A stretch of DNA of 64,000 nt, from the NCBI RefSeq assembly GCF_053078305.1, contig NZ_CP166879.1; one strand, given 5' to 3'. Below are positions 5,106 to 51,088 of the stretch, piece by piece. Position numbers and translations under genes: made by a program. The notes below the pieces were generated by a model that saw only the letters and a list, made by a program, of their open reading frames with translations, made no database searches and was not told the origin of the DNA. The first letter of the stretch is position 1; each line of letters opens with the position of its first letter.

Positions 5106-5107
5106 TC

Positions 5108-21620: not shown

Positions 21621-21640
21621 ATTTTAGAAAAGGGAAATTT

Positions 21641-28718: not shown

Positions 28719-29498
28719 ATGTTATTTAGTCGAATGATGATGACGGGTGTGCTGTCCCTGATGCTTGCAGGATGTGGAAATCTGAGTCATGTCACGGATG
28801 AAGGAACGACGGAAGAAGTGGTATGGCCTTCTCCGGAGAAGGTGATGTTTAATCATGACGGAACACAGAAAGGTTCGTGGCCACTGCCAGAAAAGTTACG
28901 TCAGATAAAGGCGGGTATGAATAAGGACCAGATTTATCAGCTGGCGGGGAGACCACACTTTGCTGAAGGGATGTCTGGTGTAAGGGAATGGGATTACCTG
29001 TTCAACTTTACCGGACCGGAGGGGGATTATACCTGCCAGTACAAGATACTGTTTGACCGGAACATGGATGCCCGCTCTTTCTACTGGAAGCCGGAAAACT
29101 GTCTGCCGGAGGCAGAGACAGCAGAATACAGGGAGTCAGTCCCCGGTGATATATTATTTGATTTTGATTCATGGACTCTGACAGAGAGGGGGCGTGATGC
29201 GCTTTCCCGTGTGGCAGAGAAGTTTCAGGCGGGTCATGTTGTCGGGGTGAAGATAGAAGGATTTACGGACCATCTTGGCGGGCAGGCGTATAACCGGCTC
29301 CTGTCAGAGAAACGGGCGGAATCAGTCAGGGGGTGGTTTATTGCCCGGGGATTCAGGGCTGAAAGGATACATGCAACGGGCCGTGGATATGATGCACCAG
29401 TGGTGTTCTGCCCGGATGTGGAGGGCGAAGCACTGAAGGAATGTCTGCGCCCCAACCGCAGGGTTGAAATAACCGGGGAAACATCAGTGACTGATTAA
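28719..29498 (+). CDS. OmpA-domain lipoprotein, TpgA-like partner of the adhesin
   Basis: 259 aa; lipobox LAGCG; C-terminal OmpA-like peptidoglycan-binding region (GFTDHLG ... NRRVEI); AGGAG RBS, 24 nt after the adhesin stop. Confidence 0.7.
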   Translation: MLFSRMMMTGVLSLMLAGCGNLSHVTDEGTTEEVVWPSPEKVMFNHDGTQKGSWPLPEKLRQIKAGMNKDQIYQLAGRPHFAEGMSGVREWDYLFNFTGPEGDYTCQYKILFDRNMDARSFYWKPENCLPEAETAEYRESVPGDILFDFDSWTLTERGRDALSRVAEKFQAGHVVGVKIEGFTDHLGGQAYNRLLSEKRAESVRGWFIARGFRAERIHATGRGYDAPVVFCPDVEGEALKECLRPNRRVEITGETSVTD

Positions 29499-30134: not shown

Positions 30135-31560
30135 AAATTAACCTTCATTTGATGCTTGATTGAACATATCAAAATCAGGCAATTACACAAATCTATGTAC
30201 AGGCTCTTTCCAAGGCCTCTCCTTTACCACTCTCGGGAAGCCCCTTTCCCTTCTTGTCGGTAATTTCACAAGTTGTCCCATACTTGCAAGATCGCGCATC
30301 AGCCCCGGTATACGTCCCGGTGAAGCGCCCTGCAATGTCATCACCATTCCGCATGATTCTGAGAAACTCAGTTGATTCGGCCAGTAACCTTTCAGATGTT
30401 CCGCCATTTTAATCATCTGACATCTTACCAGATTATAAGCCAGTAAGACACCCCACAGCTCTTGCTCCACAAGCTCCGGCTTTTTACAGCGTCAGCCTGC
30501 TCAGTTGCATCGTCTGTTTTATCTCCCTGTATCCCAGTTCAATTTCCCGGCGATGACTGTACAGATCCGCCATTTCTCCCCCGGGGAAGCGCATGGCGTC
30601 CGTCATCGACGTCAGCAGATGGCAGACTTCTCCTTTGCGCGTCACGGTCAGCAGGCGGGCTGTCACCTCATTTCCCAGTCCCGGCCACTTTTTTCGTGCC
30701 TGCGGGCTGGTTTTCAGCTTCACCAGATGATCGCCTTTACCCAGTTTTCTGATCTCTTCATATTGCGCTCCCTTTCTGAGAGGGATCATCCAGTGGCGGT
30801 GTTCTCCCACCAGGCTCCAGGCATTTAACAGTCCCAGTGAGTAATAACCTTTATCCATTAACGTCAGGGTGTTATCGCCGGTTTGTTCTATAAGTTGCTC
30901 AGCAAGCTCATTTTCGCTGTTCTTCATCGTGCCGAAGGCTCAGCCGTAAGCAGATGGCTGGTCAGTTCCATCTGGCAGACTATTTTGACCTGCGGGTAGA
31001 GCGCCGGGTTGCCGGCATGTATCTGGCGGGGGAAGGCTGCATCGTTCTCTGGTGTATCCGGTGTGCGCCAGAACATACCATCGATGGCCAGCAGGGTCAG
31101 GCCGCATCAGTGCGGATGCGGCGTGGCGTTATGCCAGAGCTGCGCTGTTTTCGTGAACACGCGGCGGACAGCCTCACTTCCCAGGTGCTGGCGGGCCTGA
31201 ATAACGGCACTGGGGGCAACGAAGGGGCGATTGCCGGCAGCATGATGTCCAGGCGATTCACAATCTGGTGAAGGGGCTCTTTACGCTCAAGCGCCATGCC
31301 AACAATACACCAGACCATCATTTCGAGGGGAAGACGGCGCTTGCGTAGCGTTACCGTACCTGATTCGGCAAGGCAACGAGAGATGAGTTCGGGGTCGAGG
31401 TAATCCCCCAGAGAAGCCAGTGGGTTACGCAGAGAATCGTAACGGGATACCAGATCAAGGGCCTGTCCAGTGTGCATAAAAAATCCGGAAACGAGTGAGC
31501 GTTTCCGGATTCTTACACAACCACTGGATCGGTCAACTGATCCTTAACCGATCGGCATTA
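30135..31560 (-). mobile_element. IS4 remnant (disrupted transposase; one terminal inverted repeat present)
   Basis: ORFs 31097..31477, 30484..30927 and 30183..30470 together match IS4 InsG in three frames; IS4-type terminal repeat ...CCGATCGGCATTA ends at 31560; the other end is not recognisable. Confidence 0.7.
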
Positions 31561-31590: not shown

Positions 31591-32166
31591 TTAGACGTTG
31601 ACGCCGTGCTGGGAAGCAAGCGCTGACAGGCCACCGGAAAAACCCTGACCGACAGCTTTAAACTTCCACTCAGCGCCATGGCGATACAGTTCACCGAAGA
31701 CCATTGCGGTTTCAGTTGAGGCGTCTTCAGACAGATCGAAACGGGCAATTTCCGCGCCGTTATCGTTGTTGTAAACGCGCATGAAGCTGTTGCTCACCAT
31801 GCCGAAATTTTGTTTACGCGCTTCTGCATCATAGATGGTAACGGCAAATACCAGTTTTTTGACGTCAACTGAGACTTTTGCCAGATCGATTTTAATTTGC
31901 TCATCGTCACCATCGCCTTCACCGGTACGGTTGTCACCCTGGTGCTCTACTGCGCCATCAGGGCTGGTTTTATTATTGAAGAAAATGAAATGGGCATCTG
32001 ACAGCACTTTACCGTCTTCACCTACTGCGAATACGGAAGCGTCCAGATCAAAAGCCTGACCGTCAGTTACACGGGCATCCCAGCCAAGACCAACCATAGC
32101 AACATTCATGGTCGGTGCTTCTTTGGTCAGAGATATGTTGCCGCCTTTTACGAGAGAAACTGCCAT
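31591..32166 (-). CDS. terE: tellurium resistance protein TerE
   Basis: 191 aa from [13 protein letters not shown]; TerD-family fold signature [13 protein letters not shown]. Confidence 0.9.
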
Positions 32167-32233
32167 TTTTAACTCCTGCAAACAGTTGAATGAGGGCTGA
32201 ATCAACAGCCCGGAATGAAAAGTTAGTTTTCGA

Positions 32234-32812
32234 TCAAGACGCGTTAATGCCGTACTGAGCACATACAGATGCCAGCCCCCCCGCATAACCCTGACCTACA
32301 GCACGGAATTTCCACTCACCATTGTGACGATACAGTTCACCGAACAGCATGGCGGTTTCAGTGGACGCATCTTCAGTCAGATCGTAGCGAGCAACTTCAG
32401 TCTGGTTATCGTCATTAACCAGGCGAATAAACGCCCCGGAAACCTGACCAAAGTTCTGACGGCGAGCCTGAGCATCATGGATCGTCACAACGAAGATGAT
32501 CCTGTCGATGTCAGACGGGACAGTATCAAGTTTAATTTTCAGCGATTCATCATCACCATCCCCCTCACCAGTACGGTTATCGCCGGTGTGCGTTACAGAA
32601 CCGTCGGATGACGTCAGGTTGTTATAGAAGATGAAATCTGAATCGCCACGCACTTTGCCGTTTGCGGTCAGCAGGAATGCTGAAGCATCCAAGTCAAAGT
32701 CCTGACCGTCAGTTGAACGTGCATCCCAGCCAAGACCCACCAGGACGTTTTTCATTGACGGAGCTGCTTTACTCAGGGAGACGTTCCCGCCTTTGGAAAG
32801 AGAAACACTCAT
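32234..32812 (-). CDS. terD: tellurium resistance protein TerD
   Basis: 192 aa from [13 protein letters not shown]; TerD-family. Confidence 0.9.
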
Positions 32813-32860
32813 AAAATAACCTCTTCGATTAGTAATTGCTCCGGTTAACACTTAAGGGGA

Positions 32861-33901
32861 TCAGTTCCCCTTTTCCTCAGATTCAGGTTTGCCGGGGAAA
32901 ATAACGCTTGCGAGAATGCCCAGCACCAGAACCCCCAGTACAACATACAGGCTGGTTGTCGCAGCGATGCTGTAACCATGATGCCAGATGTGATCGGTCG
33001 CGTTCAGGCCCAGTTTTACCGCAATGAAGAACAACAACACGATAACAGCCTTTTCCAGATGAATCAGGTACTGTTTCAGTGCTTCAAGGACAAAGTACAG
33101 AGTACGCAGCCCCAGGATAGCAAACATCATGGCACTATAGACGATAAGCGGTTCACGACTGACAGCAATGATTGCCGGTACCGAGTCAAACGCAAACATA
33201 ACATCCGAGAGTTCAACCACGGCCACACACAGGAACAGAGGGGTCGCATACAGCGCCGCCTTTTTACCACGGTCAATGGTTACATCACTGTTTTCTGGTT
33301 TCGCCAGTTCAGCATCCACTTCCTTCTGGTTAAGCAGGAAGGCATGCCCACGTAGCTTCGGCCAGACAGGGAAGAAACGTTTAACCATGCGGTAAGCCAG
33401 ATGCTGGGAGTAATCTTCAATTTCATCATCATCATCACCGCTTTTAAGCATCATGACCGCTGTCCAGGCAACGATGATAGCGAAGACGACTTCAACGTAC
33501 GGCCCCAGACTCAGCAGGCTCGTACCGATGGCGACAAAGATTCCCCTGAAGACGATCGCTCCAATGATCCCCCAGTAAAGCACACGGTGCCGATAACGAT
33601 CCGGAACAGCGAACCAGGAAAAGATGGCCATCATGACAAACAGGTTGTCGACCGACAGTACTTTCTCCAGCGCATACCCCGTGACAAACAAACTGGCAAC
33701 TTCAGCACCGTGGTGGATATAGAGGAAACCGGCAAATGCCATCGCAACAACAACCCAGAATACGGACCAGAGCGCCGCACTCTTCAGGGAGATTGGCTTG
33801 TCATCACGGTGCATAAACAGGTCAATAAAGATGGCTCCGACTGAAAGAGCAATAAAAACAATGACCGTTTCAGTCGGGAAGCCGATGTGTGTGGAAACCA
33901 T
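32861..33901 (-). CDS. terC: integral membrane protein TerC
   Basis: 346 aa, multi-pass membrane protein in conserved ter gene order. Confidence 0.9.
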   Translation of the reverse strand: MVSTHIGFPTETVIVFIALSVGAIFIDLFMHRDDKPISLKSAALWSVFWVVVAMAFAGFLYIHHGAEVASLFVTGYALEKVLSVDNLFVMMAIFSWFAVPDRYRHRVLYWGIIGAIVFRGIFVAIGTSLLSLGPYVEVVFAIIVAWTAVMMLKSGDDDDEIEDYSQHLAYRMVKRFFPVWPKLRGHAFLLNQKEVDAELAKPENSDVTIDRGKKAALYATPLFLCVAVVELSDVMFAFDSVPAIIAVSREPLIVYSAMMFAILGLRTLYFVLEALKQYLIHLEKAVIVLLFFIAVKLGLNATDHIWHHGYSIAATTSLYVVLGVLVLGILASVIFPGKPESEEKGN

Positions 33902-33919
33902 ATTTTACCCTTAGGGATG

Positions 33920-34375
33920 TCAGAGGCCAAATTCAGCCGGCTCGAAGCCCAACGCGATAGCGATCTCGCGGGAGGCCAGTTTCTCGTCCTGATCGAAGTT
34001 ACCGTCGCTTTTCGCAACAGCAATACCAACACGTAAGGCCAGTTGAGCGGCCTCAGGCTGATCTTTCAGCGCCAGGATGTATTTCATGGTCTCGCCCTTG
34101 CCGATTTCAACATCGAAATCGAAGCTTGAAACCAGTTTATTGAAGAACTCGATCACCTCATTGGTATCGAAGACCTTCAGCTCTTCTGAAGAGCGCAGAA
34201 AGCCCATCATTTTCTGCTTTTCTTCCGAACTCACGCCGTCACTCGATACGGCAATACGGGCACATACAGCAACGGTGCCCTGCATGAATTTTTTGTTTTT
34301 GAAACGACCAACCTGGCGGGTCAGTTCGTCACGACCAGAGTTAATGGCACCTTTAACTTTGTCGAAAAAGCTCAT
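33920..34375 (-). CDS. terB: tellurium resistance protein TerB
   Basis: 151 aa from MSFFDKVKGAINSG; conserved order. Confidence 0.85.
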   Translation of the reverse strand: MSFFDKVKGAINSGRDELTRQVGRFKNKKFMQGTVAVCARIAVSSDGVSSEEKQKMMGFLRSSEELKVFDTNEVIEFFNKLVSSFDFDVEIGKGETMKYILALKDQPEAAQLALRVGIAVAKSDGNFDQDEKLASREIAIALGFEPAEFGL

Positions 34376-34397
34376 ACCAGTTTCCTTTATTGCTGTG

Positions 34398-35555
34398 TTA
34401 TTTAGAACCGGCGCTCCAGCGAAATCCCCAGCCAAATGCCCGGTCCATTTCGTCCTGGCCTTTGAAGTACTGGTTGATACGCTCAACTTTAATCGCACCG
34501 TTTTCGTTTACGAGTCTGGCAATGGCGCACAATGTGCGACGGTTTTCACCTTCAGTCAGGCGGGTCTCAATGGGCGGTTGATCCGGCACATAAATGGTGA
34601 CCACTCCATCAGTCTTGTCCCAACTGGGAACACCTTCATAAATAAAGGCGTAAATCAGCACTTCGCGGATATGCTTCCATTCACGTCCATTGATATGCAG
34701 CCACTCGCCGTCTGATACATCACCCGTCCGGTCATCGCCCTTGAGCTGAACATAAGGTTCATCGCGATAATCACCGAATGCATTACCGAGCGCCTGAATG
34801 ACCGACTTATACCCGTCCTGAAGCTCAACAAAGGCTCCCAGATCCAGGTCGATGCCTTTGGAGCCGAACATGCCTGCAAAGCCGGATTTGCCGCTGCCCC
34901 GGTGCCAGTTCAGGTTGATCCTGATTTCACCGAAGTTATCCCGTTTGGTCAGACTGATTGCAGGCATCTCTTTTGTCAGAGATACTTTACTCAGGCTGAT
35001 TTTTGTCTCAGCTGGCAGAGGGGGTACAACCGGAGGAGTCGGGGCTGCGGGAGCCGGTTCGTCGGCAATATTTACGCCGAAATGCTCTGCCAGCGGTTTA
35101 AGTCCACCGTTGAACCCCTGCGCAACGAAGCGGAATTTCCAGCCATTATTACGACGGTAAAATTCACCCAGAATTAAGGCTGCTTCCTGACGGCCGCTCA
35201 GTTCGACACAGCCGCTCACCAGGCCGGTAGCCCCTTGCTCCACGTCGATGGAAAGATTACGAAGACCGGACACCGTCTGCCCACCGTCACAGGTCACGGT
35301 GAACGCAATTTTCTGGACATCAGGTTTCAGCCGGTTGAGCGCGACAGTAAAGGTTGAGTACTGACCTTCACTGACCAGGCTGACAGTACCATCATCGTTA
35401 CGTGGCTGACCATAAAACACCATGTCCGCATCCCCCTGCACCTTCCCGGCGGCATACAGGCGAAACGCTGAAGCATCCACCTGGACGCCCGAGGTTATCC
35501 GGACCCGCAACTCCTGGGCTGGAACGGGGGCATTGCCCCCCGGCATCAGGTTCAT
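34398..35555 (-). CDS. terA: tellurium resistance protein TerA
   Basis: 385 aa with TerD-like domains. Confidence 0.85.
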   Translation of the reverse strand: MNLMPGGNAPVPAQELRVRITSGVQVDASAFRLYAAGKVQGDADMVFYGQPRNDDGTVSLVSEGQYSTFTVALNRLKPDVQKIAFTVTCDGGQTVSGLRNLSIDVEQGATGLVSGCVELSGRQEAALILGEFYRRNNGWKFRFVAQGFNGGLKPLAEHFGVNIADEPAPAAPTPPVVPPLPAETKISLSKVSLTKEMPAISLTKRDNFGEIRINLNWHRGSGKSGFAGMFGSKGIDLDLGAFVELQDGYKSVIQALGNAFGDYRDEPYVQLKGDDRTGDVSDGEWLHINGREWKHIREVLIYAFIYEGVPSWDKTDGVVTIYVPDQPPIETRLTEGENRRTLCAIARLVNENGAIKVERINQYFKGQDEMDRAFGWGFRWSAGSK

Positions 35556-36136
35556 TAGCGAATAACCGCAGAAACGATATCGGAGTGCATATCGTCAATT
35601 GTGCGACCGCGACAGGCATGACCAAGGGCGGTAAAGTCCCAGTTGCCGTTATTACGGCGCAGCGAAGAAATAACGATCCCGGTATGTGAGCCCTGCTCAG
35701 TCAGCTTGTAGCAAGCCAGCTCTTTGCCGGTTTGATCGACCACACGACAGAACGCATTTTCGACGTCATTGAACGACTGCCCACGGAAGCTGTTAACCGT
35801 AAACGCCAGGTATTCAACGTTTGCAGGCAGACGGGAGAGGTTGACCTTAATCACTTCATCGTCGCCGTCACCCTCACCAGTCAGGTTATCACCGCTATGC
35901 ACAACAGCTTTGCAGGTGGATTCCAGTTTGCGGAACCAGATGGTGTCAATTGTTTTACCGGTGCTGTCCATTAATACACAGCCAGCATCGAGATCGATTG
36001 AGTCGTTACCTCCAAACAATCCTCCAAGAAAACCTTTTTTCTTAACCGGATCCCAACCGAGACCGAAATGAAGCTGGCTTAATGCAGGTGATTCTTTGCT
36101 GAGTGATACCGTCTGATTCTTAACTAATGAAACCAT
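35555..36136 (-). CDS. terZ: tellurium resistance protein TerZ
   Basis: 193 aa TerD-family (MVSLVKNQTVSLSK); stop overlaps terA start (TAATG). Confidence 0.85.
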   Translation of the reverse strand: MVSLVKNQTVSLSKESPALSQLHFGLGWDPVKKKGFLGGLFGGNDSIDLDAGCVLMDSTGKTIDTIWFRKLESTCKAVVHSGDNLTGEGDGDDEVIKVNLSRLPANVEYLAFTVNSFRGQSFNDVENAFCRVVDQTGKELACYKLTEQGSHTGIVISSLRRNNGNWDFTALGHACRGRTIDDMHSDIVSAVIR

Positions 36137-36455
36137 GTTTTATTCCTTAAAATGCTGATAACTGAGACAATCAAAAGTATATTTAGTAACTGGCGAAGAA
36201 AATCATATCATGATGAAGTTCTCTGACAAGGGAAATTTGGTAGCTTTCTGTAAAAACACAAAGAGAAATCCTTTTCATGATGTCCTTTCATCTAAATACC
36301 AATTAAATATCAACACATTAACAGGTAACACAAAAACACTGATACACTCCATAACCTCAGGTGTTATTAATCATATTATGATTGACATGTAGCATATACA
36401 CCCATAAACTCACTTCTCGACAATAAATTTTCTTGCCGTTCCGGATAATAAAAAA

Positions 36456-37514
36456 ATGAACAAAAAAATTTGGTTTATGGAAGGTTTGTCCTCTCAGAGA
36501 GATATTATTCAGGGGGTTAAATTATTTGCACAAAAAAATAATTTTGCCATTACCGTTTTTGCCTCCCACCGTAACGAAAGAAATGAAATCCTTTCCGTTG
36601 CCGATTATTCTTTGACTGAACCTGAAGATCCTCAAAAACGTCTTCAGTTTATTCAGGAAACCATTCAGACCTACGGCATCCACCATATTCATACTGGTCG
36701 TAACAACCAGTGGTTTGAAGAACACCGAACCGCCATTGAATCGACCGGTGCCACCCTTACTACCGGTGCAACGGGCATCGACTGGTTAACTCTGGCTGAC
36801 GAAAAAGTTACTTTTGCTCAGTTTATGGAGCAAAAGGGGCTCCCGGTCGTACCATCCTGGCGGGTGAATACGCTGGCAGAATTAAAGACACGCCTCGCGG
36901 CTCCGCCGTTCACTGACAGTCCGGTATGCGTGAAGCCGGTGACGGGTATCTACGGCATGGGATTCTGGCGCTTTGATGACAGTGCTTTGCCTATGGCCGT
37001 CTTTAATCACCCCGAACATCGTCTGGTCAGCCCGCAACTGTATATTGCTGCAGCGTCGGCTTCTGAGTCGTTTAAACCCCTTGTTTTGATGCCGTACCTG
37101 CCTGGCCCGGAATTTTCCGTCGATATCCTCGCGGATAAGGGCGAAATACTCGCAGCCGTGGGACGCCGTAAGGAAGGGGCTATCCAGTATCTGGTAAACC
37201 AAGGAAGCGCCTGGGAACTGGCGTGTGACTGCGCCCGGGTTATGAAGGCCGACGGGCTGGTGAATGTTCAGACGCGAAACGATGTGAATGGCAACCCGGT
37301 GCTGCTTGAAACCAACATGCGTCCGTCAGGCGGGGTGGGTTATACCCTTCACAGCGGGGTTAACCTTCCCGGGTTGTTTGCTGCTTTTAAGCTCGGTCTG
37401 ATGTCTGAAGATGCGGTGATCCAGAGCGCCAGAAATACCTTTTCTCCGGTTGCAGTGAGATCCATCACAGATGTCATCGTTTACCCGGAATCACTCTCTA
37501 ACCTTCTGAATTAA
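36456..37514 (+). CDS. ATP-grasp enzyme of the ter-associated biosynthetic module
   Basis: 352 aa; ATP-grasp-like architecture; first gene of an overlapping operon divergent from terZ. Confidence 0.7.
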   Translation: MNKKIWFMEGLSSQRDIIQGVKLFAQKNNFAITVFASHRNERNEILSVADYSLTEPEDPQKRLQFIQETIQTYGIHHIHTGRNNQWFEEHRTAIESTGATLTTGATGIDWLTLADEKVTFAQFMEQKGLPVVPSWRVNTLAELKTRLAAPPFTDSPVCVKPVTGIYGMGFWRFDDSALPMAVFNHPEHRLVSPQLYIAAASASESFKPLVLMPYLPGPEFSVDILADKGEILAAVGRRKEGAIQYLVNQGSAWELACDCARVMKADGLVNVQTRNDVNGNPVLLETNMRPSGGVGYTLHSGVNLPGLFAAFKLGLMSEDAVIQSARNTFSPVAVRSITDVIVYPESLSNLLN

Positions 37515-37523
37515 GGCGTGTTT

Positions 37524-38666
37524 ATGTCTGATACCCTCGAAGATATGATTTATCGCCGTACCCTCTCATGCGGTACGATTCAGGTAACCCGCGACCAGGG
37601 TGAAGTTTCGCTCGATGACCTGTTTGATATCGCTGAAAGACGTAACCCGAAACGCGCCTTTCTGTTTGTCAGCAAAGTACTCGGCAGGCACATTCCCGTG
37701 CCACCCTCAGTCATGCGGCAGGCCTACAGACAGCTTGCCAGCCAGTTCCCCTCAACGCTGACAGGGCCCATACTGTTTATCGGTATGGCAGAAACCGCCG
37801 TTGGGCTTGGGGCTGGTGTGTTTGATGAAGTGCGCCACCAGCATCGTGAATCTGTCTATCTGACCTCTACCCGTCACCCGGTTGATGGCACATTGCTTTG
37901 CGAGTTCAAGGAAGAACACAGCCACGCCACCGATCATCTGATCTATCTGCCAGACGATGAAGAGAAAAGACGTCGTGTTACAAACGCGCGAACTCTGGTT
38001 TTGATTGATGACGAAGCAACCACCGGTAATACCTTTATTAACCTGCTTTCTGCCCTGCGTAATACCGGCAAGCTTCAACATATTGAACAGGTTATCGCTG
38101 TTACGCTTACGGACTGGAGCGAAAATGCCCTGTCCAGGCGCAGCACTTTACCCGTCACTTCGGTTTCTCTTGTAAGTGGTCAGTGGGGATGGACTCCATT
38201 ACCAGATGCACCTGTCCCGGACATGCCGAAGGTCAACGTAACTTCACGTGGAAAATGGGACATCCAGGGAAAACAGTCCTGGGGTCGACTGGGGATGCTC
38301 GCACCTGCGGCCGATCTCGGTCATGAGGTATCCTTCCGCAAGGGGGAGCGTGTTCTGGTTCTCGGGACAGGGGAATTCGTCTGGGAGCCGTTCCTGCTTG
38401 CTGAACGGCTCGAAGCTGCCGGAGCACAGGCATTTTATGGTGCGACCACCCGCTCCCCTATCGCCGTTGGTTATGCCATTAAGTCCGCAATTTCCTTTAC
38501 GGATAACTACGGCCTGGGCATCCCCAATTTTGTCTATAACGTCGCCCATCAGCAATTTGACCGCATTCTTGTGTGTACTGAGACACCTGCAGAAAGTATT
38601 GACACGCGGCTTCTTAAAGCGCTGGCTGAGGTTGCACCCGTCGTGGAGATTGTTACCTATGAATAA
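37524..38666 (+). CDS. phosphoribosyltransferase-domain protein
   Basis: PRPP-binding-type motif VLIDDEATTGNT; ORF starts with GTG at 37518, ATG at 37524 has an RBS. Confidence 0.7.
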   Translation: MSDTLEDMIYRRTLSCGTIQVTRDQGEVSLDDLFDIAERRNPKRAFLFVSKVLGRHIPVPPSVMRQAYRQLASQFPSTLTGPILFIGMAETAVGLGAGVFDEVRHQHRESVYLTSTRHPVDGTLLCEFKEEHSHATDHLIYLPDDEEKRRRVTNARTLVLIDDEATTGNTFINLLSALRNTGKLQHIEQVIAVTLTDWSENALSRRSTLPVTSVSLVSGQWGWTPLPDAPVPDMPKVNVTSRGKWDIQGKQSWGRLGMLAPAADLGHEVSFRKGERVLVLGTGEFVWEPFLLAERLEAAGAQAFYGATTRSPIAVGYAIKSAISFTDNYGLGIPNFVYNVAHQQFDRILVCTETPAESIDTRLLKALAEVAPVVEIVTYE

Positions 38667-39432
38667 ACCCGTTGTTCTGAGCGACCTTGACGACACGCTC
38701 TTTCAGACCCGTCGTAAAATGGTAGACGAGCTGGCCCTGGAGCCATTCCGTACCGGTGCCGTTGATCGTACTCTGAATCCACGAAGCTTTATGACAGAAG
38801 AACAGTCCATGTTAGTGGACTGGCTCCTAGAGCAGGCTGAACTCATTCCCGTTACCGCACGGGGAACTGAAGAAATCAGCCGCGTAAGGATCCCTTTCCA
38901 CTCCTGGGCAATCACCACGCACGGGGCCGTCATTCTCACGCCTGAAGGCAAACCCGACGAGGAGTGGAAGGCCCATATGCTCGGCCAGCTAACTCCCTAC
39001 CAGGAAAAGCTGGCATCGATGCAGCGTCTGATCACTGAAATGATGGACGCAAAAGGGATCAATGCCTGGGCAAGACTGAACTTCGAATACGGTGAAACGG
39101 CGGTTTATATGGTGATGAAACACCGCGACAGCACTCGCCTTGACGAACTCAATGCCATTGCAGATGAGATAGAAACGGTATTTTCGACCGAGGGCTTCTA
39201 CATCCACCGCAACAGTAACAACGTAGCCTGGCTTCCCACCCCGGTTGAGAAAGGGCTGGCCGTCAGCTGGCTGCTTGAAAAACTTCGGGCTGAACGCGGA
39301 GTTTTCCCCGTAATTGGTCTGGGCGACAGCCTGAGCGATCATCGTTTTATGAAACTGTGCAGCTGGTTTGGCATCCCGCGTCAGAGTCAGTTTGCAGATG
39401 CCATTTCACAGCGAATTTTTGGAGAAAATTAA
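38659..39432 (+). CDS. HAD-superfamily hydrolase
   Basis: N-terminal DLDDTLF (DxDxT) motif; ATG 38659 overlaps the upstream stop. Confidence 0.7.
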   Translation: MNKPVVLSDLDDTLFQTRRKMVDELALEPFRTGAVDRTLNPRSFMTEEQSMLVDWLLEQAELIPVTARGTEEISRVRIPFHSWAITTHGAVILTPEGKPDEEWKAHMLGQLTPYQEKLASMQRLITEMMDAKGINAWARLNFEYGETAVYMVMKHRDSTRLDELNAIADEIETVFSTEGFYIHRNSNNVAWLPTPVEKGLAVSWLLEKLRAERGVFPVIGLGDSLSDHRFMKLCSWFGIPRQSQFADAISQRIFGEN

Positions 39433-39433
39433 A

Positions 39434-40513
39434 ATGCAGCCACATGAAACATTTACCGGCTCATACCAGCCCGGTGACGTGGAATTTCTGCTAAAGCCGG
39501 TTGTCATTGAAATGACGCCAGTTGATCAAAAAGAAGAGCTGATTCAGTCCGGGAAGAAACATTATTCGGACATGCTCAGCCAGGAGCCAGCGCCGACACA
39601 ATGGCATCTTGATTTGTTTCACCGGGCGCTGGATCGGGGCGCAGAGAGACTTGCAAAAGAAGTCACACAGCTCGCTATTGCTCTGGCCGAACGCTTCGGT
39701 GATGAGCCCATAGTACTGGCCAGTCTTGTCAGGGCTGGCGTACCGCTCGGCGTTATGCTACACCAGGCTCTGCGTGACATGGGAAAAACCTCATGGCATT
39801 ACGGCATCAGCATCATCCGGGATCGTGGAATTGACGGTACAGCACTTGATATCATTGAAGAGCGGCATGGTACCAGCGGCATTGTCTTTGTTGACGGATG
39901 GACAGGTAAAGGCGCAATTACCGGAGAGCTTGTACGCGCACTGAGAGATCGCCCGGGCTATCCTGAGCAGCCGCGACTGGTTGTCCTGGCCGATCCCTGT
40001 GGCTGTTCCTGGCTTGCAGCAAGTGATGATGACTGGCTCATTCCTTTTGGCATCATGGGGGCTCCGGTGTCAGGCCTGCTCTCCCGGTCAGTATGGTCCT
40101 CTGAAGGATTACATGGGTGCATGGTTTGCGAGCATCTCAGTGAATTCGAATGCAGCCGGATGCTTGTCGATACCGTCGCTCATTTCCGTAAGAAGTTAAC
40201 ACCGTCATCCCTCGCTCCTCTGAGCTGGAATACGGAGTCAACCCGGGTCTTATGGCAGACAAGTCGCGACGTTATCGCGTTCCTGGCCGATGAATTTAAA
40301 GTGGACAGCGTCAACCGTATTAAACCCGGTATTGCTGAAGCAACCCGGGCTGTATTACGTCGGGTACCGGACCATGTATTTGTGCGTTCGATTGACGACC
40401 CGGACGTTGCCTTACTTGTGGGGCTTGCTCGTGAAAAGGGAATAATTGTTACAGAAATGGGGGGAACCCTCGGCCAGTATCGGGCTGTAACCATTATCAA
40501 AAAGGTATTCTAA
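39434..40513 (+). CDS. ter-associated protein, PRTase-like (possibly StiP family)
   Basis: 359 aa from ATG 39434 (GGAG RBS); FVDGWTGKGAITG nucleotide-binding-like segment; family assignment uncertain. Confidence 0.45.
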   Translation: MQPHETFTGSYQPGDVEFLLKPVVIEMTPVDQKEELIQSGKKHYSDMLSQEPAPTQWHLDLFHRALDRGAERLAKEVTQLAIALAERFGDEPIVLASLVRAGVPLGVMLHQALRDMGKTSWHYGISIIRDRGIDGTALDIIEERHGTSGIVFVDGWTGKGAITGELVRALRDRPGYPEQPRLVVLADPCGCSWLAASDDDWLIPFGIMGAPVSGLLSRSVWSSEGLHGCMVCEHLSEFECSRMLVDTVAHFRKKLTPSSLAPLSWNTESTRVLWQTSRDVIAFLADEFKVDSVNRIKPGIAEATRAVLRRVPDHVFVRSIDDPDVALLVGLAREKGIIVTEMGGTLGQYRAVTIIKKVF

Positions 40514-41469
40514 TGAAAAATCGTCTTTCTCCCTGGAATCTTGGTGCCACTCTATACATGCCTGCAACACGGGAAGATATTGCTGATGCCGTTCTGCACG
40601 AGAAAATCCCGGGTTTGCGCTCTCTGGTGATTTGCCTGGAGGATGCTGTCAGTGAAGCAGACATCCCCGTCGCCCTCAAAAATCTAGAGCACCTGCTGCA
40701 CGAACTCAGTAACAGCATGCGTAGCCTGGGTAAAAATAACTGGCCCCTGTTGTTCATTCGCCCCCGGCATGCCGAAATGGGCAAATGGTTAAAAGAACAT
40801 TATGATCTTTCCGCTGTCGACGGGTTTGTGTTACCGAAATTTACCCTAAGTTCGTTAGCTGAATGGTGGGATATCATGGGCGGAACTCACCTGAGCATGA
40901 TGCCAACGCTGGAAACAGAAAACGTCTTTGATGTGATTCAGATGCGCGAGCTGGCCACCCGGCTGTTGGAACATCCCTGCCACAAGCGCATTATTGCGCT
41001 TCGAATCGGCGGCAACGATCTTATGAACGTCGTGTCGCTTCGCCGTCCCCGAGCCCTGACGCTGTATGACAGTCCGATGGGCTACGTCATCAAAATGCTC
41101 GTTTCAGTCTTCAGCCCGCGTGATTTTGCCCTGACCGCGCCCGTATGTGAGCATATTGACGATCATGCCGTTATGGCCAGAGAGCTGGCTCTTGATATGG
41201 CACATGGACTTGTTGGAAAAACGGCCATTCATCCAGATCAGATAGAGGTCATTCAAAACGCGCTGATGGTCACTCAGGGTGAGTACTCTGACGCTCTGCG
41301 GATCCTGAACTCTACCCAGGCCGTGTTTAAGTCGCAGGGGGCGATGTGTGAACCTGCCACACATCGCCGCTGGGCGGCTGGCATTCTGGACAGAGCCCGG
41401 TTTTACGGGTTACATAACGAGCAAAGCGCTGATGGAATCAGATTACTTACTATAACCCAGCATCATTAA
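40513..41469 (+). CDS. HpcH/HpaI aldolase / citrate-lyase beta (CitE)-like TIM-barrel enzyme
   Basis: ICLEDAVSEAD motif as in CitE/HpcH family; start overlaps the upstream stop (TAATG). Confidence 0.7.
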   Translation: MKNRLSPWNLGATLYMPATREDIADAVLHEKIPGLRSLVICLEDAVSEADIPVALKNLEHLLHELSNSMRSLGKNNWPLLFIRPRHAEMGKWLKEHYDLSAVDGFVLPKFTLSSLAEWWDIMGGTHLSMMPTLETENVFDVIQMRELATRLLEHPCHKRIIALRIGGNDLMNVVSLRRPRALTLYDSPMGYVIKMLVSVFSPRDFALTAPVCEHIDDHAVMARELALDMAHGLVGKTAIHPDQIEVIQNALMVTQGEYSDALRILNSTQAVFKSQGAMCEPATHRRWAAGILDRARFYGLHNEQSADGIRLLTITQHH

Positions 41470-41479
41470 GGAAATCATA

Positions 41480-42487
41480 ATGGGGTTCAGGTTCAGAGGT
41501 ACTTCCGTTTCTTTCTGTAGCCGGGGGGCCTATGCCAATCTGGGGTTACCCGGTACCGAGCTGAGTTACCGTACCCGGTTTGAGCTGGCCGCGCCTTCCG
41601 GAGGTGGAAACAGGACAGCAACCGTCCCGGATCTCAGACAGTCGCTTGAGCAGGAAGCAGTTGAACTCATGTCAGCGGTGACCGCAATTCGTAACATTCA
41701 CGAGTTGACGCTGGATCCAAAAACAGGCATCAATTGGGCAGAGCTGGAAGCAGTATACCTGCATAGCAGAACATCGCTTTTTCAGGTTCCGGCACCAGTG
41801 CGTCCTGAAAAACCAGAATACCATGCATTGTCGGAAAATCCTGCAGGGAACAAAGGCATTGTTTTTCTGGGTAAATGGTTTGAATCGGAATCAGCTAAAG
41901 CTGAGCGTCAAGCAGGGAATCTTCGCCGATGGCGGCAAGAACTGATTGATGTGAAGCGTGAGAATCCCCTTCGACAGCACCGGTACCAGCAACGGCAGAC
42001 GACCAGGGCCGAACAGTATTCAAACTGGAAGTGTGATGCTGAAGAACATGAAAAAAGGCTCGCCACGACTCAGGCAGATGCCCGGCAGTTGTTCCGGGCA
42101 GACGCAGCGTTTTTCGAATCATACCTTGCGGGTGTGCTTTCAGAAACTGAATGGCCGCGTGAAACGCTTGTTGCATTTGAAGTAAAGCCGGAGATATCAA
42201 CAGTCCTGCCGGATGTTGGTTTAGCTGAGATTGAAGATTTCCCTGATAAGATTTACGGCGTCAATGCCCGGGGCATGGAGCTGACGCAAAAAGCCATACG
42301 CGAAAACTATGCCCGCCACAGCCATGGCTGCTTGTTCCGACTGGTCGGTATCGTGTTACATACGCTACCTTTCGACAAGGTGATCGCATCAGGATTTACA
42401 CAACGAGTAAGCGGAACGACTATCTGGAGGATGTTTATATCCTGTCCTGCAAATGCACTCGCAGCCAGAAGGCATAGAACATATTGA
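41480..42487 (+). CDS. hypothetical protein (DUF4236-like N-terminus)
   Basis: N-terminal MGFRFRGTSVSF resembles the DUF4236 signature; AAGGA RBS. Confidence 0.45.
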   Translation: MGFRFRGTSVSFCSRGAYANLGLPGTELSYRTRFELAAPSGGGNRTATVPDLRQSLEQEAVELMSAVTAIRNIHELTLDPKTGINWAELEAVYLHSRTSLFQVPAPVRPEKPEYHALSENPAGNKGIVFLGKWFESESAKAERQAGNLRRWRQELIDVKRENPLRQHRYQQRQTTRAEQYSNWKCDAEEHEKRLATTQADARQLFRADAAFFESYLAGVLSETEWPRETLVAFEVKPEISTVLPDVGLAEIEDFPDKIYGVNARGMELTQKAIRENYARHSHGCLFRLVGIVLHTLPFDKVIASGFTQRVSGTTIWRMFISCPANALAARRHRTY

Positions 42488-42592
42488 TCCGGTTGAAGCG
42501 TTAGGCTATCACCCTGTTATTCGAAAGATGAGAAACACATTCATTTTTCAGCCTATTGAACCACTAACCCTTTAAGCAAACTAAATATTACG

Positions 42593-43060
42593 ATGCAATT
42601 AAATACCAGACAGGCCAGAATTTTTAAGCTTGCCAACTTACTGGGCTCCGGCAAGCCTGTTTCCGCTACCGACATTATAACCTATCTGGACTGCTCAGAG
42701 CCGACATTAACACGGGCCCTCAAAGAGCTACGAAAGTCATATTCTGCAGAAATCAAATACAGTAAGGCAGGTCATTCCTATCATCTCGTTAATCCGGGTC
42801 AACTGGATAAAAAGACACTTCGCCGGATGAATGAGGCGCTTGCACAGAATGCTGATCTGAAAACCGGTGAGTCTACAGGAAAGGTCGTACTCGATAAGGA
42901 TAAAAAAACAGCCGTATCATTATCGCTACGCATGCGAATTTTAAGAAAAATTGACCGTCTGGCTGCACTGAGTGGATCGACCCGAAGTGAAGCTGTTGAA
43001 AAACTGGCACTGCATTCCGTTGACGAACTGATAAAAGAATACAGCGCTAAAAAATCCTGA
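42593..43060 (+). CDS. terW: ter operon regulator TerW-like protein
   Basis: 155 aa, size and genomic context fit TerW as I recall it. Confidence 0.55.
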   Translation: MQLNTRQARIFKLANLLGSGKPVSATDIITYLDCSEPTLTRALKELRKSYSAEIKYSKAGHSYHLVNPGQLDKKTLRRMNEALAQNADLKTGESTGKVVLDKDKKTAVSLSLRMRILRKIDRLAALSGSTRSEAVEKLALHSVDELIKEYSAKKS

Positions 43061-43326
43061 TGACAAATCTCAGCTCGGGGTGAATACCCCGGTTTTTTCA
43101 TATTTCAACTCTGTCTTGGCGTGACGTATTTTTGATCTATTCTCCTCCCGCAATGCCAGCAGCTCCTTACAGCCTACAAAACCTAGCGTCTTGACATCCT
43201 CTTGTGCTACGCATCAATCTTTGGGCGATTTACACTCCACTCATGCAAATCTGTGATGTATGATGATTTTCAGTAAGTGTAAACTGACTGCCGTATGTAG
43301 CCATTAAGCCAGTATTGGTAACGTAG

Positions 43327-44082
43327 ATGCCCACCTTTTCACTTATTTGGTGGACACCACTTTGTCTAACTCGTCAGATTCTGACCAAACGTTTCAGGCT
43401 GTACGCTTACTCTGAAGGGGGGAGAATAGTAGCCCGTGATAGCATTGAGCTAACTGACAGCCAGATCGCAGCACTAAAGCGTAAAGCCAGTGATGACGAG
43501 GCCTGTGGCGAAAGCGAAACGGCTCATCCGGGATATCTGGGTTCGCAGGACACGTTCTATGTAGGCAACCTGAAAGGTGTCGGGCGTATTTATCAGCAGA
43601 CGTTCGTTGATACGTACTCGAAAGTGGCTCACTGTAAGCTTTACGTCACCAAAACACCGATTACCGCGGCTGACTTACTGAATGATCGTGTACTGCCGTT
43701 TTATACGTCTCAGGGCCTGCCGATGCTGAGAATACTGACCGACAGAGGCACGGAGTACTGTGGCAAAGTAGAGCAGCATGATTATCAGCTTTATCTGGCA
43801 ATAAACGATATAGAACACACGAAAACAAAGGCGATGTCCCCGCAGACCAACGGCATCTGCGAGCGGTTCCATAAAACAATCCTGAACGAATTTTATCAGG
43901 TAACGTTCCGTAAAAAACTGTACGGCGATCCTGATACATTACAGTCGGATCTTGATGAATGGCTGGCTCACTATAATAATGAGCGAAGCCATCAGAGAAA
44001 AATGTGCAATGGGCGGACGCCAATGGAAACGTTACTTGATGGAAAGCGCATCTGGGCCGAGAAAAATTTAAGCCAGATGTAA
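43327..44082 (+). pseudogene. DDE transposase fragment (rve integrase-core domain), N-terminally truncated
   Basis: integrase-core-like region (HPGYLGSQDTFYVG ... LTDRGTEY ... NGICERFH); no upstream HTH domain. Confidence 0.55.
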
Positions 44083-44142: not shown

Positions 44143-45348
44143 TTAAGGTTTTAAATTCATTAAGTAATCAATATCAACTGGATGATTATAATCCACTGAC
44201 TCAAATCCAAAACCATTTAATTGTAAAAATTCTTTTTTGTATCCGATATAATCACCTACAGAAGTAAAGTTTTCATCATTCATTTTTGACATCAAATCAA
44301 TTACTTTTTGTTGCACATCCTCTCTTAATTCAAGATCGTCTATGCGAATTAGTCTTGATGAATCAACAACAACATTATCGACATTGTATAAATATTCAGT
44401 AAAAAGACGATGCATTTGTCCAATACATGTTTCATGCAATCCCATAGACTTCATTACCTTATATAAGCAGAGTATATAAGGAGAGAAACAGGGAATATAC
44501 ACACTAGCCTTCGTAACTAAAGCTTTACAAACTACTACATAAGCGCCACTATGTTTATCTGTGGAAATTAATTTATTTAGACGATCAGATGTTTCGTGTA
44601 AATGTTGTTTGGCTTTTCCTAATGTCCCTGTATGATAAATCGGATAAGTCATTTCTGGACCGATATATGAAAAAGCAATTGTTTTGGTCTTCTTAGTAAG
44701 AACATTATTTTCCTTTAACCAAAGTATCCATGACTCCCAGTCATCCCCCCCCATAACTTTTATAGTATCTGCAATTTCAGCCTCTGAAGCAACATCAATA
44801 ATTGTTGATTCAAGTTTATTATCTTCGATATTAACCGTTTTCCCTGTAAAAGCACTGCCAGTCGTTTTTAAACAGGAACGCCAAATGTTACCTGTTGCTG
44901 GATCTGACCTTTGCCCTGTGGCCAGACTATATATAATAAGATCGACCTCGCCATCAAAATCCTTATTTATTAAGTTAAGAACTTTATTTTTTACATCATC
45001 AGAGAAAGCATCGCCAATAACATTATGAGCAATTCTGCCTTCAGCTTCAGCAAATTCCTTAAAGAATATATTATTATACCATCCTGCAGTTCCTATAGAT
45101 TTCTCAGAGGGACCTTTTTCAAACGAAACTCCGATAGAATCGCACTTTGCGCCGCCAAAAGTGAGAGAAATTCTTGCAGCAAGACCAAATCCTGAAGATG
45201 CACCGAGAATCAGAACTCGTTTCGGGCCATTATTAATTTGCTGAAGATGGGACTGGCAATACTTAATCTGTTCCATTATCGCATGACGACATCCCTCTGG
45301 ATGAGCACTTTTCGAGACAACACCTTTAATTACAGGTTTTATAATCAT
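44143..45348 (-). CDS. fabV: trans-2-enoyl-CoA (or -ACP) reductase, FabV/TER family
   Basis: 401 aa; MIIKPVIKGVV, KRVLILGASSGFGLAARI and SYIGPEMTYPIY match FabV/TER throughout. Confidence 0.85.
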   Translation of the reverse strand: MIIKPVIKGVVSKSAHPEGCRHAIMEQIKYCQSHLQQINNGPKRVLILGASSGFGLAARISLTFGGAKCDSIGVSFEKGPSEKSIGTAGWYNNIFFKEFAEAEGRIAHNVIGDAFSDDVKNKVLNLINKDFDGEVDLIIYSLATGQRSDPATGNIWRSCLKTTGSAFTGKTVNIEDNKLESTIIDVASEAEIADTIKVMGGDDWESWILWLKENNVLTKKTKTIAFSYIGPEMTYPIYHTGTLGKAKQHLHETSDRLNKLISTDKHSGAYVVVCKALVTKASVYIPCFSPYILCLYKVMKSMGLHETCIGQMHRLFTEYLYNVDNVVVDSSRLIRIDDLELREDVQQKVIDLMSKMNDENFTSVGDYIGYKKEFLQLNGFGFESVDYNHPVDIDYLMNLKP

Positions 45349-45373
45349 ATAAGGTCCTTGATAGTTAAATAAA

Positions 45374-45790
45374 TTAAGATTTTGGAGCCATGACTACTGC
45401 AATGCCTTCGATTACAACCTCATCATTTTGATTTGTTGTGATTGTTGAAAGCTTTACAATATTTTTTTCTTTATTAATATCAACTACCTCGCAAGTTGCT
45501 TTAACAGTGTCACCAATAAAAACAGGTTTGCGAAAATTGTTTTCCTGACGAAGATATATTGTGCCTTCACCTGGGAGTTTCATACCTAATACTGCTGATG
45601 TTAGAGATGATACAAGAACACCATGAGCTACTCGTTTCTTGAAAATACTCTTCTTTGCAGCTTCCTCATTAATATGAACAGAATTAATATCGCCAGAAAT
45701 ACCAGAAAAAATTAAAACATCTGCCTCTGTTATTGTTTTTTCAAAGCTCGCCTTCTGACCTAAGTGTAGTTTATCAATAGTGTATACCAT
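45374..45790 (-). CDS. MaoC-like (R)-specific enoyl-CoA hydratase / dehydratase
   Basis: 138-aa hot-dog-fold-like protein (DINSVHINEEAAKKSIFKKRVAHGVL). Confidence 0.75.
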   Translation of the reverse strand: MVYTIDKLHLGQKASFEKTITEADVLIFSGISGDINSVHINEEAAKKSIFKKRVAHGVLVSSLTSAVLGMKLPGEGTIYLRQENNFRKPVFIGDTVKATCEVVDINKEKNIVKLSTITTNQNDEVVIEGIAVVMAPKS

Positions 45791-45792
45791 GA

Positions 45793-47358: not shown

Positions 47359-47370
47359 ATTAAACCTCTT

Positions 47371-48708: not shown

Positions 48709-48777
48709 ATTATAACTCTCAATATTAATATTATTATTTAAGTATCTCCTGACAAGCAAGAGATACTTATTTCAAAG

Positions 48778-49986: not shown

Positions 49987-49995
49987 TCCTCCTCC

Positions 49996-50715
49996 TTAAA
50001 TAACTAATCCACCATCAATTTTTAATGTTTGACCAGTAATAAAAGATGATTTCTCACTAGCTAAAAAAAGAACACCATTCGAAATATCCTCAGGTGTTGC
50101 CATTCGCCCTAAAGGGGTTTTAGCTATCATATGGTTAATGACTTTCTCTGGCAGATTTTCTGTCATCGGGGTAATAACGAATCCTGGAGCTACACAATTC
50201 ACGCGTACTTTAGCACCTTTTCGGGAAAATTCTTTAGCCCAACCTTTAGACATTGCAATAACACCACCTTTAGTTGCGGCATAATTACTCTGACCTATAT
50301 TACCATCAGTTCCTACAACAGAAGACATTGTTATGATTGCCCCATGATTTTGTTCCATCATAATAGGTGCAACTGCCTGAGTTATATTAAAAACACCTTT
50401 AAGGTTTATATCAATTACAATATCCCAGTCTTGCTCTGTCATATTATTGATCAGATTATCTCTTGTAACTCCTGCGTTATTAACTAAAACATCTATTCTA
50501 CCTTCATCAGAATATATCTTACTAATTACTGTATTAATCGAATCCCGATCGCAAACATCAAGAATTACCGGAGTGACATTCTCTGGATAGGATTTATCAG
50601 TATGTTTTATATCACATGCATATACTCTTTTTACCTCTGATTTAGAAAAATCCTCCACAATTTTTCTTCCTATACCTTGTGCTGCTCCAGTAACTATACA
50701 TACTTTATTACGCAT
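49996..50715 (-). CDS. SDR-family 3-oxoacyl reductase (FabG / acetoacetyl-CoA reductase-like)
   Basis: 239 aa from ATG 50715; TGAAQGIGR Rossmann motif and Y-x3-K (YAATK) active site. Confidence 0.85.
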   Translation of the reverse strand: MRNKVCIVTGAAQGIGRKIVEDFSKSEVKRVYACDIKHTDKSYPENVTPVILDVCDRDSINTVISKIYSDEGRIDVLVNNAGVTRDNLINNMTEQDWDIVIDINLKGVFNITQAVAPIMMEQNHGAIITMSSVVGTDGNIGQSNYAATKGGVIAMSKGWAKEFSRKGAKVRVNCVAPGFVITPMTENLPEKVINHMIAKTPLGRMATPEDISNGVLFLASEKSSFITGQTLKIDGGLVI

Positions 50716-51088
50716 TTTTATTCCCTCATTTTTGAATATAGAACAGGATGCCTTTCGTTTTGCAACAAAACATCTTTTAACCATTCTCGTTCATAAAGTA
50801 AAACCTTAAAAATACAGAATCACAAAAAAAAAACACTTATAACACTCACGCAACAATCAAAAAATACATTATTTCCCAATGAGTTATCTGTTAATGAAAA
50901 AACAACCACTATATAAAGTGCAATAATCATCACAAACACCTCTTCAAAAATGAAAAACTGTACTTTATAAATAAAACACAAACCACATTACTTCACATTT
51001 ATCAGAAAAATTAAAAACAAAACTTGTTTGATAAATTTAATATGATATTTTCATATTGCATTGAAGTTTTGTTTGCTTGGGTTGATTC

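Follow-up and report, generated by a model that had tools for sequence, protein, structure and literature searches.

What do the enzymes encoded opposite the tellurite-resistance (ter) operon make, and do they act as a single pathway? We addressed this question for a ter locus on contig NZ_CP166879.1 (RefSeq assembly GCF_053078305.1), using a stretch of 64,000 nucleotides that is referred to as the window in this study. The locus occupies positions 31591 to 43060 and consists of terZABCDE on the minus strand and a divergently transcribed biosynthetic module, followed by terW, on the plus strand. We consider it probable that it is an eroded ter allele carrying a co-regulated module that spends phosphoribosyl pyrophosphate (PRPP) to make a ribosylated metabolite. 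The chemistry taken by itself, a small ribosylated metabolite, has in our judgment about an even chance of being right, and within this chemistry a nucleoside is clearly favored over an O-ribofuranoside. The module, its predicted product, the co-regulation, the TerW palindromes and the sufficiency of terZ-F are already known, all having been published previously, and the enzymes have Ter-named Pfam families. The module and its “nucleoside-like” product are said to have been predicted by Anantharaman, Iyer and Aravind in 2012.

Five enzymes encoded divergently from terZABCDE

The module comprises the following genes.
36456-37514, plus strand: ATP-grasp ligase (Pfam ATPgrasp_Ter, 2.7e-37).
37524-38666, plus strand: PRTase_2+TRSP, a type I phosphoribosyltransferase (PRTase) with a C-terminal TRSP domain (Pfam, 7.6e-63 and 5.6e-23).
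38659-39432, plus strand: HAD-IIB phosphatase (NCBIfam HAD-IIB/MPGP-like, sub-threshold; PDB 6CJ0/6D3V, E 2e-43).
39434-40513, plus strand: StiP (former Pfam PRTase_1) with a C-terminal, L7Ae-like PELOTA_1 domain (Pfam, 4.3e-88 and 8.6e-25).
40513-41469, plus strand: CitE/HpcH-type TIM-barrel C-C bond lyase (Pfam C-C_Bond_Lyase, PF15617, 1.6e-113; weak RipC/CitE matches).

This gene set is almost certainly a true member of the Ter-associated biosynthetic modules rather than an analogue of them. All parts of the module described in 2012 (ATPgrasp_Ter, PF15632; PRTase_2, PF15609, with TRSP, PF12500; HAD; StiP, PF11202, with PELOTA_1, PF15608; and C-C_Bond_Lyase, PF15617) were matched, with the gene order preserved and transcription diverging from terZABCDE. 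The differences are that a DUF4236 gene has decayed here and that the neighboring terF and TerY/kinase/phosphatase genes have been lost. A preliminary description of this DNA, made from the sequence alone, had listed terZABCDE, the five enzymes, a DUF4236-like protein and terW; these genes are indeed present at or near the positions given there, except that the “DUF4236-like protein” turned out to be a frameshifted pseudogene.

The genes are tightly packed. The PRTase and HAD genes overlap by 8 nt (ATGAATAA), the HAD and StiP genes are separated by a 1-nt gap, and StiP and the lyase gene share a TAATG overlap, as do terZ and terA. The overlaps had been described beforehand as ATGA and TAATG: both TAATG overlaps are there, but the one between the PRTase and HAD genes is 8 nt long and not a simple 4-nt ATGA.

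Across 72-77 orthologues, the catalytic motifs show conservation of at least 98%. The PRPP loop of PRTase_2, DDEaTTGxTF, is conserved at this level (at least 98%) in 74 orthologues and is present here in its canonical form, LIDDEATTGNT. The HAD motifs DLDDTlFQT, IPVTARGT and GDSlsD and the lyase motifs CLED, RIGGNDLM and GKTaIHPxQ are conserved among orthologues, and the conserved residues of the ATP-grasp protein are K117, K160, E219, R237, K239, E285 and N287. The predicted structure of the latter (predicted local distance difference test score, pLDDT, 96.5) has as its closest solved structure 2pn1, itself an uncharacterized protein. This model indicates a carboxylate-amine ligase of the amide-ligase-like kind, and the structural search reveals no substrate. 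By sequence search, no solved relatives of the ATP-grasp protein, PRTase_2, StiP or the lyase were found in the PDB. Searches for RNA families (Rfam) and tRNAs (ARAGORN) in or beside the ter/module locus returned none.

Conservation and selection of the module

Ratios of nonsynonymous to synonymous substitution rates (dN/dS) were computed against the counterparts in the common ter allele, which is about 94% identical in DNA sequence (see below). All 12 intact genes have exactly the same length as these counterparts, with dN/dS values of 0-0.17. Decay of the whole module, which its ends truncated by insertion sequences (IS) and its pseudogene might bring to mind, was considered and rejected: the five enzymes and terW are full length, with dN/dS values of 0.06-0.17.

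An ATP-grasp alignment was used as the query in a scan of one genome per species, which yielded 80 loci, 76 of them with room for downstream genes. All five enzymes are complete in 75 of these 76, and the contiguous order ATP-grasp, PRTase_2, HAD, StiP, lyase is kept in 74. Seventy-one of the 75 complete loci adjoin ter structural genes, the remaining four being cut by contig ends. The overlaps are conserved as well: -8 nt between the PRTase and HAD genes (64/76), -1 between StiP and the lyase gene (58/73) and -1 between terZ and terA (47/74), while the HAD and StiP genes overlap or lie no more than 2 nt apart in most loci. The module can therefore be regarded as a selected, coupled unit tied to the Ter proteins, as selection, conserved order, overlaps, motifs and ter linkage all point the same way; the earlier view of a divergent, translationally coupled module is borne out by the same figures for overlaps and order. 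The conserved core is exactly the five enzymes plus terW, and the DUF4236 gene is dispensable.

Several loci depart from the usual arrangement. In Orbaceae of the bee gut (L061 and L062), the module and terZ-terA-terC-terD are co-directional, and terB was not detected by a tblastn screen. In a Desulfovibrio metagenome-assembled genome (L080), the enzyme genes are scattered among the ter genes, in the order terA-ATPgrasp-lyase-terB-terD-terC-terZ-terD-PRTase-HAD-StiP. A natural 769-residue fusion of ATPgrasp_Ter, PRTase_2 and TRSP adjoins a TerD gene (L086, 739-3048), which suggests that the ligase and PRTase_2 act on consecutive steps or in a complex. A metagenomic ATP-grasp gene whose product is 36% identical (L085) faces TerD/TerD/TerB/(Na_Ca_ex)/TerD; at 3131-4120 of this locus, a Na_Ca_ex exchanger stands in the place of TerC between TerB and TerD. 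This exchanger hints that the conserved membrane function might be cation (Ca2+/Mn2+) transport.

Only one locus, in Ignatzschineria ureiclastica (L072, 1010-4915), has an ATP-grasp homologue (47% identity) without the other four enzymes. A stand-alone function of this homologue was considered, but with a contig end 1 kb away and the PtuA/PtuB defense genes (Septu/retron Ec78-type) and gyrA directly behind it, we think it more likely that the gene is a remnant. As a separate observation, the enzymes diverge much faster than the Ter proteins of the same loci (L005-L084): the ATP-grasp proteins, for example, are 55-60% identical where TerD/TerE/TerC are 85-92% identical.

Putative shared regulation by TerW

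A 319-bp spacer separates the two operons; the two promoter-like sites that score best in the region lie in it and face outward. The elements concerned are as follows.
36201-36229, minus strand: terZ promoter-like site, TTGTCA-16-TATGAT with an upstream TG (scan score 10/12).
36201-36215: palindromic box 1, AATCATATCATGATG, overlapping the -10 of the terZ site; putative TerW operator.
36369-36383: palindromic box 2, AATCATATTATGATT, abutting the -35 of the module site; putative TerW operator.
36382-36410, plus strand: module promoter-like site, TTGACA-17-TAAACT.
42593-43060, plus strand: terW (RefSeq name), small DNA-binding regulator with weak matches to HTH_11 (N-terminal winged helix-turn-helix) and RHH_1 (C-terminal, ribbon-helix-helix-like); dN/dS 0.084.

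The palindrome AATCAT-N3-ATGATT has just two matches in the window, both in this spacer. Among 57 non-identical orthologous intergenic regions, no other block of the spacer is as well conserved as the boxes, which reach 90% or more where the background is 40-50%. The box is present in 60 of 60 loci with terW versus two of eight without it, counts that are uncorrected for phylogeny. As each promoter-like site is overlapped by a palindrome, one repressor could switch both operons together.

These observations are in line with published work. The gene terW is known to regulate the ter operon (PMC12054061, PMC7843439). Kravchenko et al. (2021; PMC7843439) reported two putative TerW sites in the spacer of Pectobacterium versatile and equated them with the TerW-protected region of Valkovicova 2011, and RNA-seq in Pectobacterium revealed co-repression of terZABCDE and the five-gene operon (PMC7843439). 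Both spacer palindromes of the system described in E. coli KL53 and P. versatile are present here, conserved in sequence and position, whereas the third site, located before terY1, is missing, because the terY1 part of the locus is deleted. The spacer palindromes and their co-variation with terW are thus a confirmation of the published putative TerW sites, not a new finding.

StiP: a phosphoribosyltransferase fold under a protease name

The predicted structure of StiP (pLDDT 92) has a PRTase alpha/beta core plus an L7Ae/L30e/Pelota-like domain. This model supports the identification of StiP as a “second PRTase-like protein”, which the preliminary description had proposed. The best structural neighbors are PRPP-dependent O-ribofuranosyltransferases, namely CriT of Bcs3 and the Thermobacillus composti enzyme 7SHG, at 11% identity. 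The PRPP loop of StiP is invariant and shortened (FVDGWTGKG), with a single acidic residue.

StiP could instead be a cysteine protease, in which case the gene set would not be one small-molecule pathway. RefSeq and Pfam name the protein in this way after work on Acinetobacter baylyi, and PMC11994780 cites Reichert 2013 for protease activity of A. baylyi StiP and for its being required for tellurite resistance and a normal cell shape. Conservation is 90% or more for Cys189 and complete for His227. However, at least one orthologue has Gly in place of Cys189, and the invariant residues are found mostly in VDGWTGKG, RDRGxD and VRAGVPLG, which appear similar to the PRPP loop and adjacent loops by analogy with type I PRTase sequences. 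Moreover, there was no protease fold among the top 60 structural matches of StiP. We therefore regard a protease as highly improbable.

The structural neighbors raise another question, namely whether the module carries out PRPP-dependent O-ribofuranosylation, with StiP acting on a hydroxyl of a sugar, a polyol or an acid, or possibly of an RNA held by the L7Ae-like domain, and the HAD enzyme removing the 5-phosphate. Such a mechanism is documented for the H. influenzae b capsule polymerase Bcs3, in which CriT transfers ribofuranose-5-phosphate from PRPP onto a hydroxyl and the HAD phosphatase CrpP then removes the phosphate (PMC10299916). The top structural match of StiP is the PRTase-like fold of these enzymes, CriT and 7SHG, which act together with a HAD phosphatase on ribose-5-phosphate derived from PRPP, and the close adjacency of the HAD and StiP genes in most loci would fit such a pairing. 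The differences are that identity is 11%, that the locus offers no glycan polymerase or export context, and that the L7Ae/Pelota-like, RNA-binding-type domain of StiP is absent from those enzymes. The likeness of StiP to ribofuranosyltransferases widens the candidate products beyond nucleosides, and should be considered a modest lead, not a discovery.

The HAD phosphatase and the Pseudomonas “trehalose phosphatase”

The HAD protein aligns over its full length (residues 2-253, E 2e-43) with a P. aeruginosa “trehalose phosphatase” (TPP; PDB 6CJ0/6D3V/6D3W). In a Ter module on a P. aeruginosa plasmid, the gene for the crystallized enzyme (L087, 8992-9750) is flanked by the PRTase and StiP genes, and thus occupies the same module position as the gene studied here. 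The structures were reportedly described by Cross et al. in 2018 as those of a trehalose-6-phosphate (T6P) phosphatase. The P. aeruginosa enzyme has since been used as a T6P phosphatase (PMC6838324), and it is being pursued as a drug target. No link between this TPP work and the ter module was found in the literature searched, a search that did not extend to the original 2018 paper.

No OtsB/T6PP model is present among the NCBIfam matches of the HAD protein of the window (E<=0.01), the best of which are MPGP-like and HAD-IIB, all below cut-off, and no T6P synthase (OtsA-type glycosyltransferase) was found among the annotated genes of the locus. Since there is neither an OtsB-type family match nor a T6P synthase nearby, T6P is perhaps a surrogate substrate. 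That the HAD enzyme of the module already has crystal structures and an assay under another name provides a modest lead.

These data also bear on O-ribofuranosylation. The HAD orthologue acts in vitro on a glycoside phosphate, T6P, and the HAD-IIB relatives MPGP and SPP all act on glycoside phosphates. On the other hand, StiP has no profile-level sequence match to the CriT/7SHG-type enzymes, glycan-assembly and export genes are not in the locus, and the PRPP loop of PRTase_2 is of the fully canonical nucleobase type, so that the pathway probably still includes an N-glycosidic step at some point. As an account of the module, O-ribofuranosylation is in our view unlikely. Its strictest form, in which StiP and the HAD-IIB enzyme would be a soluble CriT/CrpP-like pair acting on a small acceptor made by the C-C lyase and the ATP-grasp ligase, or on an RNA held by StiP, no nucleoside would be made, and the P. 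aeruginosa “TPP” would be misassigned because it is the dephosphorylating step, appears slightly more doubtful still.

A proposed pathway and its relation to Ter phenotypes

HAD-IIB enzymes typically carry out the second step of synthase/phosphatase pairs. In the pathway that we favor, the five enzymes would form a single, translationally coupled, PRPP-dependent route: the C-C lyase and the ATP-grasp amide ligase would make or tailor an acceptor; a phosphoribosyltransferase would join ribose-5-phosphate to it; and the HAD-IIB phosphatase would then strip the 5'-phosphate. The product would be a small ribosylated (“nucleoside-like”) metabolite that might act with, or signal to, a membrane-associated TerC/TerB/TerD complex. 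The preliminary description had likewise spoken of a predicted nucleoside-like product without characterization; this agrees with the literature through 2025 and restates the comparative-genomics prediction of 2012. No report of the module product was found in the literature searched through 2026.

Several points weigh against this pathway: the best structural neighbors of StiP make O-glycosidic bonds to ribofuranose rather than being nucleobase PRTases, and its loop (VDGWTGKG) is non-canonical; A. baylyi StiP has been published as a protease, as cited in PMC11994780; the sole assayed orthologue, the P. aeruginosa HAD enzyme, is reported to be a T6P phosphatase and not a nucleotidase; the co-variation of box and terW is uncorrected for phylogeny, with the six box-less loci coming from few clades; and the promoter and terminator matches, as a class, occur at chance frequency in the scan.

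The module is not required for tellurite resistance as such. The genes terZ-F alone confer tellurite resistance on E. coli K-12 (PMC8115787), so the module is dispensable for this trait, and terBCDEF alone gives a tellurite minimal inhibitory concentration (MIC) of 2 mM (PMC11003894). Most likely, the module plays a role in Ter-linked stress phenotypes other than tellurite. Two such phenotypes, phage inhibition and colicin resistance, are attributed to ter clusters by Whelan 1995, as related in PMC12054061. According to the same source, they map to terZ, terC and terD, with an insertion in terA having a partial effect on phage inhibition.

The phage phenotype leads to a different proposal, that the enzymes are anti-phage effectors which, once freed from TerW repression, drain PRPP/nucleotide pools or make a toxic nucleotide analogue, as do or might retron type III PRTases, ShosT and viperin-like enzymes. 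This would account for the phage inhibition by ter plasmids that was noted above. PRTase_2 has a weak PADLOC match to the retron PRTase_III-A (E 5e-4), PRTases are recurrent defense effectors (bioRxiv 2025.09.30.679545), the locus lies on a mobile element with a type III restriction-modification system in the neighborhood, and the orphan ATP-grasp homologue of Ignatzschineria lies beside PtuAB. However, PADLOC 2.0 called no system, and for nine of the ten proteins no component match rose above noise: the match just mentioned and one of TerW to a WYL-type HTH (7e-4) are marginal, and the other eight of the ten proteins had none. Furthermore, phage inhibition was mapped to the ter genes and not to the module (PMC12054061); a lyase, a ligase and a phosphatase together resemble the construction of a product and not simple depletion; and entire genera, among them Proteus, Morganella, Yersinia and Pectobacterium, carry the module as a fixed part of the chromosome. 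We consider a role as anti-phage effectors very unlikely, and the synthesis of a ribosylated metabolite remains our preferred explanation.

The ter operon

The genes of the divergent operon, all on the minus strand, are in the order Z-A-B-C-D-E, with TerB and TerC encoded between terA and terD.
35555-36136, minus strand: terZ, TerD-family, first gene of the operon (BLASTP to TerD, 1.3e-36).
34398-35555, minus strand: terA, long TerD-family protein (BLASTP to TerD, 6e-22).
33920-34375, minus strand: terB (PDB 2JXU TerB, E 9.7e-85; 100% amino-acid identity to the E. coli M19 protein).
32861-33901, minus strand: terC, TerC/Alx integral membrane protein (TIGR03718, 359 bits against a cut-off of 246; dN/dS 0.076).
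32234-32812, minus strand: terD, Ca2+-binding TerD fold (PDB 2KXT, Klebsiella TerD, E 2.9e-120, full length; dN/dS 0.055).
31591-32166, minus strand: terE, TerD-family paralogue, 64% identical to TerD (BLASTP 3e-96), annotated as TerD family (dN/dS 0.10).

The gene terF, which encodes a vWA protein and is present in the canonical locus (L002) and many others, is not found 3' of terE, where an IS4 remnant lies instead. In PMC12054061, terF is reported to be non-essential for Ter phenotypes.

Accessory gene and edges of the locus

The remaining features between and around the conserved genes are as follows.
30183-31477, minus strand: degenerate IS4-family transposase remnant, the left boundary, at the canonical position of terF (insG, with a frameshift and an internal stop in the RefSeq annotation of a 99.8%-identical E. 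coli record).
41480-42575, plus strand: DUF4236-family pseudogene, with deletions and a frameshift relative to the intact gene (dN/dS 0.45).
43075-43100, plus strand: intrinsic-terminator-like hairpin 15 nt past the terW stop (7-bp stem with 5 G-C pairs, then TTTTTT).
43327-44082, plus strand: transposase (integrase-core) remnant lacking its N-terminus, the right boundary, at the canonical position of terY1-terX-terY2-TerY-C-PP2C-kinase.

Compared with the intact 402-residue gene of E. coli M19, the 335-residue open reading frame at 41480-42487 has lost stretches of 75, 15, 4 and 19 nt, of which the one of 4 nt puts it out of frame. RefSeq flags a frameshift in the 99.8%-identical E. coli record. 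The Pfam match of this reading frame is merely 0.013, and its dN/dS of 0.45 stands against 0-0.17 for its neighbors. The gene is present in just six of 70 related loci and is an accessory passenger outside the pathway. The hairpin after terW is suggested solely by its position, terminator-like matches overall being at chance level in the scan. In the canonical locus (L002), terF lies on one side and terY1-terX-terY2-TerY-C-PP2C phosphatase-kinase on the other, and both are replaced here by transposase remnants.

Allele type and genomic setting

One E. coli chromosome, that of JNEC-KY171, matches the segment at 99.8% identity. In contrast to this, terZ-E plus the module reaches about 94% DNA identity with the allele that is common in O157 islands and IncHI2-type plasmids. 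Among 5426 complete E. coli genomes, 947 have a ter locus that covers at least 80% of the query, as do 1241 plasmid records, whereas identity of 99% or more was found in a single complete E. coli genome; this is a rarer, divergent allele. Canonical ter loci (IncHI2 R478, E. coli O157 SpLE1/TAI and K. pneumoniae pK2044) have the same genes and synteny at this identity of about 94%, and differ in that the present allele is rarer, is borne by an integrative conjugative element (ICE), has a fabV/fabG cluster alongside and lacks terF and terXY.

The ICE is represented by TIGR0375x ICE genes and traG. Nguyen et al. (PMC8193136) described a ter-type 4 that is chromosomal and characterized by tra genes, a fatty-acid cluster, IS256 and insertion at tRNA-Phe; strains of this type had significantly lower tellurite MICs (PMC8193136). 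The ICE genes, the fabV/fabG cluster and the 94% identity to the common allele are ter-type 4 features seen here, while IS256 is present in the closest relative and absent from the window. ARAGORN detected no tRNA within the window. The locus is thus a truncated, divergent and ICE-borne allele in an E. coli-like genome, most like ter-type 4, and assignment to this type is probable. The ter locus is widespread in enteric pathogens, tellurite media are diagnostic for O157 and hypervirulent Klebsiella, and the locus has been linked to gut fitness and macrophage survival; this partly eroded copy adds little beyond thousands of others.

To the right of the ter locus, a low-GC (32-37%) cluster at 44143-52002 encodes fabV, a MaoC dehydratase, a CoA-transferase, a GntP permease, a thiolase and fabG, with a divergent LysR regulator. 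This is the typical “fatty acid biosynthesis cluster” of ter-type 4, although the genes that it comprises are more suggestive of the catabolism of short-chain acids or ketone bodies. The cargo to the left is of a virulence type and includes the ireA siderophore receptor gene (approximately 21619-23667), an OmpA-family gene (28719-29498) and a gene for a 1454-residue YadA-like trimeric autotransporter (24330-28694), about 96-97% identical to the JNEC-KY171 copy.

Farther to the left, three minus-strand RNA motifs at 15476-15641, 17214-17371 and 17872-18037, two STAXI and one EFASI, lie among ArdC, DUF1281 and N6-methylase genes, which mark the leading/anti-restriction region of the ICE. At 3069-8020 lies a type III restriction-modification pair of low GC content (34-39%), consisting of a 678-residue methyltransferase and a 970-residue endonuclease. 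Its counterparts in a few E. coli genomes share about 92-94% identity with it; JNEC-KY171, otherwise the closest genome, lacks this part and has subAB and a sialic-acid cluster in its place. Finally, a match to the small RNA STnc100 was found at 852-1054.

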